IMG/VR virus record: IMGVR_UViG_3300017991_000008
Location: 16,524-80,523 of that record
Source: a virus
Direction: 5' to 3' (one strand)
DNA: 64,000 nucleotides
The position numbers and the translations under genes are program-made. The notes under the pieces are model-generated. The model searched no databases. It saw only the letters and a program-made list of their open reading frames with translations, and was not told where the DNA came from. Below are positions 1 through 57,193 of this stretch, in pieces (position 1 is the stretch's first letter; the number at the start of each line of letters is the position of its first letter).

Positions 1-420
1 GAGGTGGAGGGTACCGAGGAAGAAGAGGAGGAACGCACCGTTCTTTCTGTGGTTCTCGAACCCAACGACGGCGAAGACGGAGCCCCGCTGTCCCCTGATA
101 CCCAGGGTGACATTTACAGCAAAGAGGCGGTTAAGAACACAGCTTGGGGCTGGATGGAAAAGGGTGGCAAGATCGGCTTAATGCATCAGTTAGATGTGTC
201 CGAGAAGGTAGCCGTTCTTGAAAGCTACGTAGCCTTGTCTGATATCGTAATTGAGGAGGGAACCAAAAATTACACCATTAGAAAGGGTTCCTGGGTGCTG
301 CGGTTGAGAATCTACGATGATCTCCTATGGAAGAAGGCCAAGGACGGAACCCTGGGGGCGTTTTCAGTGGGTGGTACTGCTCAGGTTGAATATCTCGAAG
401 AAGACGGGTCGGAGGAATAG
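1..420 (+). CDS. xkdF: XkdF-like prohead serine protease (5'-truncated by window)
   Basis: VVLEP..D.QGD.Y...MH...VLESY...KGSW.L...W..AKDG.LGAFSVGG pattern; position just before scaffold and capsid; frame open to base 1. Confidence 0.8.
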   Translation, partial: EVEGTEEEEEERTVLSVVLEPNDGEDGAPLSPDTQGDIYSKEAVKNTAWGWMEKGGKIGLMHQLDVSEKVAVLESYVALSDIVIEEGTKNYTIRKGSWVLRLRIYDDLLWKKAKDGTLGAFSVGGTAQVEYLEEDGSEE

Positions 421-423
421 CAG

Positions 424-1485
424 ATGGGCACAAATAAAAAACCGAAAAAGCGTCTTGTCTCTATGGATACCGAAGAAGTTTCCCTGGTTAACATGGGAGC
501 CAACGGTCATAAAGAGTGGTTATTGGTAAAGGTAGATGAAGAGACTGTTAAGGCTGTACCTGGCTCAGACGCTTCGGATGAGGATAAAAGGGCGGCACAA
601 CAGACCAGGGCACAAAAATATGGCATTGAAGCCCTTGAATCCGGTGCAAACCTATCCTACCCAAGCGGGGATCCCACCACGGAGTCCCTGTACGGCGATC
701 CAGTGAACCTTAAATATCCTCTAGGGTACACAGCCAATACTCGGGACGCGGGACGTATACGGAACGCTATATCACGTTTCAAAGGGAATCACGGATCATA
801 TTCGAAGGACACCAGCAAGGCCAGGATATACGAAAGGATTGTTCGGGCTGCGCTAGCCGAGGATATCGACGTGTCCTATGACCCCGAAGATGAAATCGAT
901 AAATTACTTCCAGCCGATCTAAAAACCAGGTTGGCCAAAGATGAAGAAGATACAGGAAAAGAAGACGATACCAATGAAGATGCAGGCAGTCCACCAGCAT
1001 CGCCTGAAGGGGAGCCTTCCAACGAAACGACTTCTAAATCGGGACAGGGAACCGACCTCGTCGCCGATTTTAAAACCGGGCTCGAGAAATCACGGCAAAC
1101 GCTTGCCCGTGTACAAGCTCTCGCCAAGGCTCGGGAGTTAAAGGAACAGGCACTCCAGGCGATAGAGGCTGTTAAAAAGGCATCCGTTGATAATGGTCCA
1201 AGCAGTCCAAAGAACGAGGTCGGTAAGGATGAACCGGAAAGGGTAGATACGGAGAAGGCCGAGCTCAAGAAGCAGGCATCCGATCAGGCCGCCGAAATCC
1301 AGCGTTTGAAGAAGGAATTAAAAAAGGAAAAGGCAAAAAAGTCAAGGGTGAGCACAGCAATCGGAATGTCTCAGTCCCTCCAAACCAGGGAAATCATTCA
1401 GACTGCAAAGGGCCAGGAGGAACAGGGAGAAGAGAGCAATCTATTCGATTTGTCGCCACCACTTGAGAAAGTTAAAGGAGATTAG
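424..1485 (+). CDS. Head scaffolding / prohead-protease-associated protein
   Basis: N-terminal EVSLV..GAN motif as in XkdF C-termini, YGDPVNLKYPL domain, acidic linker, C-terminal coiled coil; directly upstream of capsid; GGAGG SD. Confidence 0.65.
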   Translation: MGTNKKPKKRLVSMDTEEVSLVNMGANGHKEWLLVKVDEETVKAVPGSDASDEDKRAAQQTRAQKYGIEALESGANLSYPSGDPTTESLYGDPVNLKYPLGYTANTRDAGRIRNAISRFKGNHGSYSKDTSKARIYERIVRAALAEDIDVSYDPEDEIDKLLPADLKTRLAKDEEDTGKEDDTNEDAGSPPASPEGEPSNETTSKSGQGTDLVADFKTGLEKSRQTLARVQALAKARELKEQALQAIEAVKKASVDNGPSSPKNEVGKDEPERVDTEKAELKKQASDQAAEIQRLKKELKKEKAKKSRVSTAIGMSQSLQTREIIQTAKGQEEQGEESNLFDLSPPLEKVKGD

Positions 1486-1487
1486 AA

Positions 1488-2432
1488 ATGGCCCAAAGCA
1501 ATAACGAAATCCTCCGTAAAGCCCAAATGGCGCTTGGAGATTTGGACAACGGTGGGAAGTTGCCACCGAACGTAGCAACCAAATTCATCAAAGACACGGC
1601 TGCCGACGCTCCTCTTCTTCGGATGATGAGAACGGTAAAAATGCCGGAGCCCGAGATGAAGATTCCCAAGATCACCATCGTGGGCAGGGTAGCCCATGCG
1701 GTGGCCGCAGGAACCGCACTTCCCGAAGAGGACCGGACAGCTCCAGTCACCTCAGAGGTGAGTGTCACCACCGAAGAGATGGTGGCAGAGGTTCCCCTCA
1801 ATGATTCAATCATCGAAGACAACGTGGAGAAGAAGGGGCTTTGGAAGGTTGTGGAAGCCCTCATGCGAGCTCAGATTGCAGTGGACGTCCAGGAGAACTT
1901 CGTCTCGGGTGACACCGACGACGCAGATCCTGACCTCGCACTCTTCAACGGCTTGATCAAGTTGATCACGTCAAACAACGTACCGGCCGCAGCACAACCC
2001 TGGTCCGTCGATCTGGCAGAACAGACAATGTCCGTTCTTCCCGAGAAGTACCTGGACAGGGACGAGATGAACATGCGCTTCCTAGGCGCTGCCAAGACAG
2101 AGCGCAAGTACAGGAAGAGTCTCGTTGACAGAGAAACCGCCCTCGGAGATCTTCTTCTCGAGAAAAAGAAGGGATCGTCTCCCATGGGGATCCAGATGGT
2201 CAACATCCAGGGATGGCCGACCTCCTACGAGGGAACCGCAAACCGAACCGTCGAGATCCTGATGAACCCGAAACAGTTCATCGGTGGCTGGCACAGAGAC
2301 ATCTACCTGGAGTTCGAGCGTTCAGCACGATCTCGCCTCACCACCATGGTCTTCTCCTACAGAGTGGGCTGTGCACTTGAGGAGGAAAAGGCAACCGCAA
2401 GTTGTACCAACGTGCAGGTTCCCACATCCTAA
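1488..2432 (+). CDS. Major capsid protein (HK97 fold, XkdG-like)
   Basis: 314 aa; GGKLPP..A.KFI, E-loop region, LFNGLIKL, P-domain-like C-terminus; position after scaffold; biased codon usage. Confidence 0.85.
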   Translation: MAQSNNEILRKAQMALGDLDNGGKLPPNVATKFIKDTAADAPLLRMMRTVKMPEPEMKIPKITIVGRVAHAVAAGTALPEEDRTAPVTSEVSVTTEEMVAEVPLNDSIIEDNVEKKGLWKVVEALMRAQIAVDVQENFVSGDTDDADPDLALFNGLIKLITSNNVPAAAQPWSVDLAEQTMSVLPEKYLDRDEMNMRFLGAAKTERKYRKSLVDRETALGDLLLEKKKGSSPMGIQMVNIQGWPTSYEGTANRTVEILMNPKQFIGGWHRDIYLEFERSARSRLTTMVFSYRVGCALEEEKATASCTNVQVPTS

Positions 2433-2501: not shown

Positions 2502-3125
2502 ATGATTACGAATGTCTTGAAACGTAAAGAAGGTGACTTGTGTGCCAACCTTCAAACGTACGCCCATAAAATAAAATTCACGGGCGATGCCACCTACCCA
2601 GACGGTGGAACCCCTGGATTCGTTGCAACCCTGCAGGCCGCTGTTGGGTTGAAGATCACCCCCATTGAGGTTATCGCCATCAACTGCGGCGCCTACAAGA
2701 CCCAGGTAACCGAAACGCCAGCCATTGTCCAGACCGACGTGGAGACATGGCCAGTGGCAGACCAGGATGGCAACACCATTCTGTACAAGCTCAACGGAGC
2801 AGACGAGGCGACGTTGACACTGTCCGGCGCTCACACTACGAGAGCACAGTTGGCAGCATCCCTAGAGGCCATTTCCGGGATCCACGCCTACGATGACGGA
2901 GCACAGGTGACTTTCAAGACCGATGAGGTCGGCGAAGGGGCCTCTCTTGAAATCACAGGTGGAACCGCGTTAGCCGCCTACGGGCTTGTCGCGGGCAACA
3001 ACATCGGAAGCGATGAGCTGTTGCTCAGGGTCAACGACATCGCAGATGGTGCAGATGCCGGGGTTGGAGCCGCCTCAACTGACCTTAGTGGCACAGTTTT
3101 CGAAGTCCTGGTAATCTCGAACTAG
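2502..3125 (+). CDS. Putative head decoration/virion protein carrying the repeated virion module
   Basis: Strong AGGAGG SD, follows capsid; PVADQxGNT module shared with sheath. Confidence 0.6.
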   Translation: MITNVLKRKEGDLCANLQTYAHKIKFTGDATYPDGGTPGFVATLQAAVGLKITPIEVIAINCGAYKTQVTETPAIVQTDVETWPVADQDGNTILYKLNGADEATLTLSGAHTTRAQLAASLEAISGIHAYDDGAQVTFKTDEVGEGASLEITGGTALAAYGLVAGNNIGSDELLLRVNDIADGADAGVGAASTDLSGTVFEVLVISN

Positions 3126-3142
3126 AGTGCCGGGAAAGGCTT

Positions 3143-3214
3143 GGGAGAGGGGCCGGGGGTAAAACAGACCATTTGCCCTGTGCCCGGCCCCTTCTCTCAT
3201 TATCACAGGGCAAA
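3143..3214 (+). ncRNA. Structured intergenic RNA element (interleaved helices, pseudoknot or switch)
   Basis: 3143-3157 pairs with 3183-3198; 3172-3182 pairs perfectly with 3204-3214. Confidence 0.5.
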
Positions 3215-3237
3215 ACGACGGGGCAAGGAGTCGAACC

Positions 3238-3897
3238 ATGGGCGAAATGATTTTCGCAGCTCGAATGAAAGAGTACAACAAGAAGAAAAATTACCTGCGG
3301 AGGAATACCATCATCTTGGGACGCCACTATACCGCTGGTGATGCTACCAAGGGACAAAAGTTCATCCCGTCTCCTTTTGTTATCATAACGAAGGAGGAAG
3401 CCAAGGAACTGTTGAAACGGCACGAAGACCGTACCTGGGAACACCATCAACCGGGAAATCCTCACATTCCGATCTTTGACGTGTTCAAGGTTGGTACCGT
3501 GGAGGAATTAATGGAGTTGGCCCAGAGCGAAGCCGACCACCGTTCCTCCCAGGGAGGTTCTGGAGCCCGTGCTCTAATAGCTGGCCAAGTGGCTAAGATT
3601 TTGGCAGACAAACCGACTGCTGCTTTGCGCAATCCCAGACAGGTGGATGATGAAGAGCCACCGGAGCCAAAGGCCAAGATCGATTCTGTGGAGACGAAAG
3701 AGGAAAAGACGGATCCAGATCCGTTTGGTGATGAGCCCACTCCCATAGAGGGAACGGAATCAGATACCGAAACCGAACCAGAGGAAAAGGTCGCAGAACC
3801 AGAGGTGAAAAAACCTGCTCCAAAGTCAAAATCGAAGGCCAAACCAAAGTCCAAGGGCAAGGCTAAAAACACTGGTAGAGCAGCGAAGAAGAAGTAG
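3238..3897 (+). CDS. Hypothetical virion-associated protein, acidic linker and Lys-rich tail
   Basis: ORF with AAGGAG SD; C-terminal KKPAPKSKSKAKPKSKGKAK. Confidence 0.65.
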   Translation: MGEMIFAARMKEYNKKKNYLRRNTIILGRHYTAGDATKGQKFIPSPFVIITKEEAKELLKRHEDRTWEHHQPGNPHIPIFDVFKVGTVEELMELAQSEADHRSSQGGSGARALIAGQVAKILADKPTAALRNPRQVDDEEPPEPKAKIDSVETKEEKTDPDPFGDEPTPIEGTESDTETEPEEKVAEPEVKKPAPKSKSKAKPKSKGKAKNTGRAAKKK

Positions 3898-37614: not shown

Positions 37615-37659
37615 GCTTGATGAAGTACAGGTGCTAGTCTAGTGTAGATTACACCGGGG

Positions 37660-37741
37660 GCACCTGTCCTTCATGGGCTGCTACAGACCGGGTCTTCTCC
37701 CCCGCGTGAAAAGTTTGTAGCGGTCTATCAAGGGCAGGTGT
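37660..37741 (+). ncRNA. Long G-U-rich hairpin in leader of initiator gene
   Basis: 37660-37688 pairs with 37713-37741 (about 28 bp, several G-U pairs, one C-C mismatch). Confidence 0.55.
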
Positions 37742-37783
37742 TAAGTGAGACGATGAAGACTACTCAACTAAAAGGAAACGCAG

Positions 37784-46361: not shown

Positions 46362-46386
46362 CACGGAAGCGAAAGAGGCTTATAGG
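46358..46386 (+). promoter_or_regulatory. Sigma70-type promoter
   Basis: TTGACA-17 nt-TATAGG. Confidence 0.65.
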
Positions 46387-46430
46387 TATAAAAGGCACAG
46401 GGCAATCATTTCAATTTTTATCCCCAGCAC

Positions 46431-46479
46431 AGCGGGGGTCGTTACAAACATCAAACCCGTGCCTGTAACGATCCCCGCT
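46431..46479 (+). ncRNA. 16-bp leader hairpin, paralogous to core of 37660 stem
   Basis: AGCGGGGGTCGTTACA / TGTAACGATCCCCGCT with a 17-nt loop. Confidence 0.55.
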
Positions 46480-46496
46480 TCATTTACGGAGGGGCC

Positions 46497-57021: not shown

Positions 57022-57127
57022 GGTCTTCTGGTCTCAAGTTGTTGCGCAAGCAATAACAGAGCTCAGACTCTAAGCACGTTGTGCGTTTGAGGTGTCCCCC
57101 CCCGCCGAGCCCAACGTGCTTTTTTTA
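57022..57127 (+). ncRNA. Candidate small RNA (two long hairpins plus U-tract)
   Basis: Hairpin 57027-57067 with GCAA tetraloop; hairpin 57072-57121 with C-rich loop; T-run to 57126. Confidence 0.55.
57072..57126 (+). terminator. Intrinsic terminator-like stem plus T-tract
   Basis: AAGCACGTTG/CAACGTGCTT followed by TTTTT. Confidence 0.5.
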
Positions 57128-57193
57128 TCCAGATACATGTGAAAACATACAAAGGCATGTTGCAGCATACTGTGGCATATAGTACAAAAATTA

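Follow-up and report, generated by a model that had tools for sequence, protein, structure and literature searches.

A conserved RNA element with two interleaved helices, well supported by comparison with related sequences, lies on the plus strand of an uncultivated phage, in the gap that follows a capsid-associated gene. The first helix is a long G+C-rich hairpin; in the second, part of its loop pairs with the leader of the gene that follows. With its loop complementary to that leader, the hairpin is, on the sequence evidence, probably a control element for late-gene expression. We posit that the element acts in its intercistronic position on the plus-strand transcript, where the hairpin would terminate or stabilise the upstream message and the loop-leader pairing would tune translation of the next gene. 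To this reading as a whole we assign a probability of about 0.5.

The source is a virus record of IMG/VR with a length of 95,380 bp and direct terminal repeats, and all of its sizeable open reading frames are on the plus strand. The analysed stretch of 64,000 nucleotides, referred to here as the window, begins within a block of head genes. The features of the locus are as follows, in positions of the window; group 1 is a family of relatives described below.

1-420, plus strand: XkdF-type protease of the head-gene block.
424-1485, plus strand: 353-aa protein of the head-gene block.
1488-2432, plus strand: HK97-type major capsid protein (phrog_1623 match; PF05065 on its homologues).
2502-3125, plus strand: upstream gene, an open reading frame of 207 aa directly 3' of the major capsid gene.
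3126-3237: intergenic gap of 112 nt between the 207-aa and the 219-aa genes.
3143-3157, plus strand: A, the 5' arm of the long G+C-rich hairpin (sequence, MFE fold and repeat finder).
3158-3182, plus strand: hairpin loop of 25 nt; the nested MFE fold extends the hairpin apically by pairing 3158-3163 with 3172-3177.
3172-3182, plus strand: B, the part of the loop that can pair with B' (11 bp) or with B'' (10 bp, two of them G-U).
3183-3198, plus strand: A', the 3' arm, which contains a one-base bulge and is followed by an only weakly U-rich tail.
3204-3214, plus strand: B', complementary to B at every position; 5 nt separate it from A' and 23 nt from the ATG.
3218-3227, plus strand: B'', a weaker second partner of B, which overlaps the first Shine-Dalgarno (SD) bases and aligns with B' of group 1.
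3225-3230, plus strand: SD sequence AAGGAG of the 219-aa gene (sequence read).
3238-3897, plus strand: downstream gene of 219 aa, with its ATG at 3238.

The gap is the sole large structured gap of the structural-gene region. For the 207-aa protein on its upstream side no Pfam or PHROG match was found; it is possibly a capsid-surface or decoration protein, and its AlphaFold model, which is of low confidence (pLDDT 64), gave weak matches to the outer beta-domains of flagellin and FliD. In the 219-aa protein on the downstream side, a conserved N-terminal domain is followed by an acidic middle part and by a lysine-rich tail that makes its C-terminus strongly basic. Its family, for which no Pfam, PHROG or Atlas assignment was found, shares this layout (3238-3897 in the window; 5227-5979 in L004; 5757-6332 in L002), with an N-terminal domain of about 115 aa, an acidic low-complexity stretch and the lysine-rich tail; the L002 and L004 homologues carry long Pro-Glu repeats in the acidic stretch. 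SD-like cores precede 47 of the 75 predicted genes, against a background rate of 18.5%, so that SD-led initiation is the norm in this phage.

An earlier note on this DNA had described the arms in the order A, 14 nt, B, 0 nt, A', 5 nt, B', and both the sequence and a repeat finder bear this out. The pairings that it gave, 15 bp with one bulge for A/A' and a perfect 11 bp for B/B', were confirmed by the repeat finder and the MFE fold. A and A' share a core that is complementary at 10 of 10 positions (3148-3157 with 3183-3192, repeat finder), which extends across the one-base bulge to the 15-bp stem of the MFE fold (3143-3157 with 3183-3198). B and B' are complementary at 11 of 11 positions (3172-3182 with 3204-3214, sequence read and repeat finder) and form the only perfect inverted repeat of at least 11 bp with a spacer of at most 40 nt in the window. 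When the loop and the downstream segment were shuffled, a Watson-Crick run of at least 11 arose in 1 of 20,000 shuffles, and interleaved perfect helices of at least 10 bp, of which the window holds one pair, occurred in none of 300 first-order Markov simulations of 64 kb. Both helices are not due to chance.

The window hairpin A/A' has a folding energy of -33.8 kcal/mol. The nested MFE structure of the region (-46 kcal/mol, z = -1.6) contains only A/A' and the apical extension, which uses the 5' half of B, and with this z score the fold energy of the region alone is unexceptional. The alternative pairing of B with 3218-3227, which abuts the SD and was absent from the earlier note, has a duplex energy of -14.6 kcal/mol (B/B'') vs -17.9 kcal/mol for B/B'.

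Relatives were recovered by protein-guided scans with alignments of the capsid, 207-aa and 219-aa proteins, which gave seven further distinct versions of the gap, each between homologues of the same two genes. Together with the window these make eight sequences in four families. Group 1 consists of L003, L004 (identical in four contigs), L038 and L040, the last from a 92.7-kb contig binned as a bacterium of the FCB group; a second family consists of L050 and L051, from viral contigs of 93.5 and 86.3 kb, and a third of L052 alone. The set omits P0002 and the closest relatives by capsid identity (P0004 and P0005, 78-79%). Further scans with the three protein alignments and two DNA patterns returned no contigs beyond those already recovered. 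The clade consists of uncultivated phages of 86-97 kb; among the phages of GenBank no DNA match to the sequence was found, and by protein there were distant capsid relatives only (at most 33% identity). Since MAFFT and RNAalifold could not align the arms of the eight hairpins jointly, the evidence across families was computed for each sequence separately. No unpaired nucleotides are conserved across the families.

Covariation in related sequences, which the earlier note had named as a check, was found heavily in helix 1 and more thinly, when counted by columns, in helix 2, and it supports the proposal of an RNA-level element with two interleaved helices. All relatives have a G+C-rich hairpin of 15-18 bp with an energy of -29 to -37 kcal/mol. 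In a five-sequence alignment of the stem, both sides have changed in 10 of 16 pairs while 92% of the cells are paired; slid controls, in which the partner was moved by one to three columns, gave at most three double-changed pairs. The fold is better on the plus than on the minus strand in three of the four families.

Intrinsic terminators have a U-tract of about 7-9 nt right after the stem and a loop of typically 3-8 nt. The 9 nt that follow the stem contain seven U in L003, five in L004 and six in L038, and these three hairpins clearly have the sequence characteristics of intrinsic terminators. The counts are five in L040 and four each in L050/L051 and L052. The window has three, or five if the core stem alone is considered, and with so poor a U-tract (3-5 U in 9 nt) termination in the window phage is doubtful. 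The loop exceeds the size typical of intrinsic terminators, with 25 nt in the window and 16-22 nt in the relatives, and an apical mini-helix can cut it to 3-8 nt. A simple terminator scan missed the hairpin because its loop limit was 8 nt. A score of the d'Aubenton-Carafa type was negative in all sequences, but the energies were not calibrated to its formula, and it was not relied on. Terminators of the canonical type do occur in the window genome, as at 57072-57135, where a long hairpin is followed by T7 in a 295-nt gap with several other hairpins. In more distant capsid relatives the capsid gene is likewise followed by a hairpin, of the ordinary small-loop kind, and a hairpin at this boundary is thus a general theme; the large loop with a downstream partner is, judging from the sequences compared, specific to the clade of the window.

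Helix 2 has partners in eight of eight sequences, in each of which part of the loop is complementary to a stretch located after A' and before the next start codon. The partners in the four families are as follows.

Group 1: B TCTTTGCCCCAAAG and B' CTTTGGGGCAAGGA, 14 bp with one G-U pair, covering AAGGA of the SD.
Window: B TTTGCCCTGTG and B' CACAGGGCAAA, 11 bp.
L052: B GCCCCTCGA and B' TCGAGGGGC, 9 bp.
L050/L051: B CGATCCCCT and B' AGGGGATYG, 9 bp, extendable.

The families have a CCCC/GGGG core in common, and the flanks, which differ, remain complementary (AAAG/CTTT, TGTG/CACA, TCGA/TCGA and CGAT/ATCG). One-sided changes are found in L038 (C to T), L040 (A to G) and L050 (C to T), all of which give G-U pairs on the plus strand, and the minus-strand duplexes of helix 2 are weaker. 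The duplex energy between the loop and the downstream segment is lower than that of shuffled sequences in every family, with at most 1 of 3000 shuffles counted against it for group 1, 5 of 3000 for L050 and L051, 15 of 3000 for the window and 25 of 3000 for L052. By columns, nine pairs of helix 2 are invariant, two have changed on one side and one on both sides. This covariation is thin because the four group-1 sequences share a nearly identical B and B'. Pairwise identity within group 1 amounts to 96% in B and B', 64-69% in the stem arms and 29-40% in the flanks, which makes B and B' the best conserved blocks of the gap in this group. The four lineages are related by descent, as is the shared CCCC/GGGG core, and the families are therefore not fully independent tests.

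The linker between A' and B' had been considered too short to span the 15-bp stem, and this geometry holds. In the relatives, too, stems of 15-18 bp are combined with linkers of 1-10 nt: group 1 has 6-10 nt, L050/L051 1-9 nt and L052 6 nt, compared with 5 nt in the window. By A-form geometry a relaxed coaxial H-type knot is sterically doubtful and should be impossible unless stem 1 opens in part; in the window, opening of the six pairs below the bulge would give a linker of about 12 nt over a 9-bp core. The earlier note had favoured two alternative folds instead. The steric tension behind that proposal is real, but a spontaneous thermodynamic two-state switch alone is unlikely, since giving up A/A' would cost 4-15 kcal/mol even in the best fold with A' unpaired. 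A sum in the style of RNAPKplex (rest of the fold, duplex and a penalty of 8.1 kcal/mol), which ignores sterics, favours the knotted state over the nested MFE in every sequence, by 0.2-7 kcal/mol.

In each of the eight sequences B' comes after both A' and the U-tract. It therefore cannot pre-empt the hairpin and matters only on read-through RNA, and this order rules out a terminator/antiterminator attenuator as well as the antitermination control suggested in the earlier note.

The position of helix 2 relative to the ribosome-binding site differs among the families. In group 1 either fold masks the SD: B/B' covers AAGGA, and in the nested MFE the SD is paired with a second anti-SD, ACTCCTTG, located immediately upstream of stem A. 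In the other three families (window, L052 and L050/L051) there are 21-23 nt between the end of B' and the ATG, which places B' at the margin of a ribosome footprint and leaves the SD uncovered, so direct masking of the SD is not universal. Translational control, as it had been proposed, is thus plausible from the family in which the loop helix covers AAGGA. SD masking in the window is possible, as far as complementarity indicates, through the weaker pairing with B''; it is not evident in L052 or L050/L051. MAFFT aligned B'' of the window with B' of group 1, leaving B' of the window as an insertion of about 11 nt, and the layout of L052 is the same as that of the window. Group 1 also has an extra small hairpin right after the stop codon (5141-5175 in L003; 5137-5166 in L004; 1850-1890 in L038) and, after it, a conserved AACTCCT(TG) anti-SD that adjoins the terminator stem on its 5' side; neither of these was found in the window.

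Long phage late operons have to supply hundreds of shell proteins and only few copies of the proteins of neighbouring genes. To our knowledge, how this step-down is set is known for only few model phages. We posit that helix 1, following the capsid-associated gene, may act as an intrinsic terminator or as a 3'-end stabiliser of the abundant capsid-gene mRNA, as a strong terminator in some relatives and a leaky one in the window phage with its decayed U-tract. Helix 2 would form only on transcripts that pass the hairpin, with B pairing to B' or, alternatively, to B'' beside the SD. Given the short linker, coexistence of the two helices would require an H-type pseudoknot that is strained or partly frayed; otherwise they would alternate. 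The leader of the next cistron would in this way be tied to the hairpin, by which translation of the 219-aa gene could be lowered or set, and the step-down in expression from the shell proteins to the genes that follow would be made at both the RNA and the translation level.

Two well-known systems resemble parts of this scheme. T-phi of phage T7, after gene 10, is an intrinsic terminator behind the major capsid gene of a phage late operon. The element described here is alike in having a G+C-rich hairpin directly after high-copy capsid genes, with 5-7 U in three relatives, and in that the downstream genes continue on the same strand, which makes read-through a requirement. It is unlike T-phi in its loop of 16-25 nt instead of 3-8 nt, which holds a conserved leader-complementary segment, and in the U-tract, which is degenerate in the window, L040, L050/L051 and L052. 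In sib retroregulation of phage lambda, extra pairing beyond the terminator extends the same stem on read-through RNA. Here, too, terminated and read-through RNA would differ in structure through extra partners beyond the terminator, but the extra pairing goes to the loop and thereby takes on the topology of a pseudoknot.

Such an element would be a compact device that links the ending or stability of a transcript to translation. If confirmed, it would represent a new architecture among the pseudoknot-type translational operators of DNA phages, which are a short list, and would offer a simple design rule for tuning expression ratios within operons. The practical reach is limited for now, as the family is small. 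In a full-text search of a limited literature collection we found no description of a terminator loop that pairs with a downstream leader in a phage late operon.

A bolder version, which we regard as a long shot, treats the enlarged terminator loop as a dedicated antisense module for the next leader. Because the linker is too short for relaxed intramolecular pairing in cis, read-through transcripts might be targeted in trans by the 3' ends of the abundant terminated capsid mRNA; alternatively, the strained knot might be locked by a phage protein. Expression of the downstream genes would then be scaled to the amount of capsid message, and the element would represent a new class of regulator.

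A protein also takes part in the first of the rival explanations, in which the loop-leader helix or pseudoknot is a translational operator that a phage protein binds for autogenous repression of the downstream gene. Candidate binders would be the lysine-tailed 219-aa product, with its strongly basic C-terminus, or unassembled capsid protein. Pseudoknot operators beside ribosome-binding sites are an established kind (PMC3014915, PMC1888825): autoregulatory operators of this type are found in Escherichia coli rpsO, bound by S15, and in T4 gene 32, bound by gp32 (PMC3014915), and rpmI-rplT has a long-range pseudoknot operator for L20 (PMC1888825). The element shares with these the possibility of alternative folds, and its B/B' sequence is kept beyond what pairing needs (96% vs 64-69% in the hairpin arms), which fits sequence-specific recognition. 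We nevertheless consider an operator unlikely, since an RNA-binding domain was detected in neither of the two flanking proteins and since B/B' differs completely between families, so that the specificity of the protein would have to co-evolve each time. The architecture departs from these operators as well, in that helix 1 is an intercistronic, terminator-like stem of 15-18 bp where theirs is a short stem in a 5' leader, in that the linker would not allow a relaxed knot, and in that the candidate element has no assigned binding protein.

In T4, the genes e, soc, 49 and I-TevI have ribosome-binding sites that are sequestered in upstream-initiated transcripts (PMC3014915). Applied to our locus, read-through RNA containing B would be shut, transcripts started between B and B' would be translated, and the hairpin would separate the two transcription units. 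As in the T4 cases (PMC3014915), the 5' partner lies upstream and the 3' partner at the leader; the upstream sequence of group 1 pairs with the leader and SD in a way that should leave long read-through transcripts poorly translated, and in group 1 an A+T-rich stretch with TANNNT-like hexamers is located just before B'. This stretch, however, is also the U-tract of the terminator and is not conserved in L052 or L050/L051, and a sigma-70-type scan detected no plus-strand promoter in 3126-3237. Unlike in T4, moreover, the 5' partner lies inside a terminator loop, and B' leaves the SD uncovered in three of the four families. Transcript-specific translation of this kind is therefore improbable.

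We give a similarly low chance to an RNA processing site, where the stacked or extended helices of the read-through RNA would be a substrate of RNase III or another endonuclease, similar to lambda sib or the intercistronic sites of T7, and the cut would detach a stable capsid mRNA from the message downstream. The intercistronic position after capsid genes and the length of the helices (15-18 bp and 9-14 bp) would suit such a function, as would the anti-SD/SD helix of group 1, which extends the hairpin only on read-through RNA and so follows the logic of sib; yet a continuous double helix of at least about 20 bp is absent unless the knot forms.

The hairpin might also be a plain terminator or stabiliser, with the complementarity a functionless by-product, for example of template-switch mutation close to a strong hairpin or of a duplicated leader motif. 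The nested hairpin alone accounts for the MFE fold, small-loop hairpins are common at this boundary in distant relatives, and the window has two tandem GGGCAA-like copies (3208-3214 and 3221-3226) that resemble a local duplication. The complementarity is, however, found in four families with different sequences and beats the shuffles in each; no other blocks of the gap evolve as slowly as B and B', and the one-sided changes all keep the pairing as G-U. We therefore think there is little to be said for an origin without function.

Last among these rivals, and very unlikely, is a site at the DNA level, where a regulator or another dimeric DNA-binding protein would recognise B and B' as inverted half-sites. 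An operator of this kind would likewise show inverted repeats with co-varying half-sites, and B and B' of group 1 are each nearly palindromic. In the window, however, B has lost its palindromic character, and the motif is found at no other place there; the spacing of the arms varies from 17 to about 30 bp, and the non-palindromic centre is an exact complement (CCCC vs GGGG). The one-sided changes are G-U compatible on the plus strand only, with worse energies on the minus strand.

Several further candidates were rejected. A known Rfam family (riboswitch, ribozyme of the pistol, twister or HDV-like type, or phage cis-element) did not emerge from the Infernal search that the earlier note had suggested, in which the best matches reached at most 20 bits vs gathering scores of at least 72; with E values up to 10, only models of miRNAs and viral stem-loops were hit, as by a generic hairpin. 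ARAGORN detected no tRNA or tmRNA in 2900-3500. A packaging-related RNA, which the earlier note had also mentioned, received no supporting sign, the motif being unique in the window, and a repeated promoter or packaging motif was dismissed, as GGGGCAAGGAG and the TTTGCCC-type motif are not repeated beyond chance in the window. Attenuation by a ribosome at the upstream stop codon was discarded as well; the stop is situated 18-33 nt before stem A, and the extra hairpin of group 1 is absent from the window.

After the TAG stop codon of the 207-aa gene the frame stays open for 72 codons (3126-3341), running into the next gene in another frame, and TCGAAC is present at both 3117-3122 and 3231-3236. 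Stop-codon read-through and ribosome hopping were rejected, because in L003 the frame closes after 16 codons and the TCGAAC repeat is not conserved, and because hopping onto 3234 would be out of frame with the gene at 3238. With neither feature conserved in L003, the open frame and the repeat are probably chance.

The minus strand of 3199-3226 contains a sigma-70-like match (TTGCCC, a 16-nt spacer and a TG-extended GATAAT) that is formed by the reverse complements of B'', B' and the decayed U-tract. Promoter-like sites in the region are fewer than expected from shuffles, and no minus-strand gene is nearby. Two other structured places were observed in the window. At 46362-46496 a near-perfect hairpin with a stem of about 16 bp and a loop of about 17 nt is followed after 12 nt by a GGAGG SD, with no loop-leader complementarity seen at a quick look. 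The nested fold of 37615-37783 contains a very long G-U-rich hairpin of about 28 bp with an energy of -67.5 kcal/mol.
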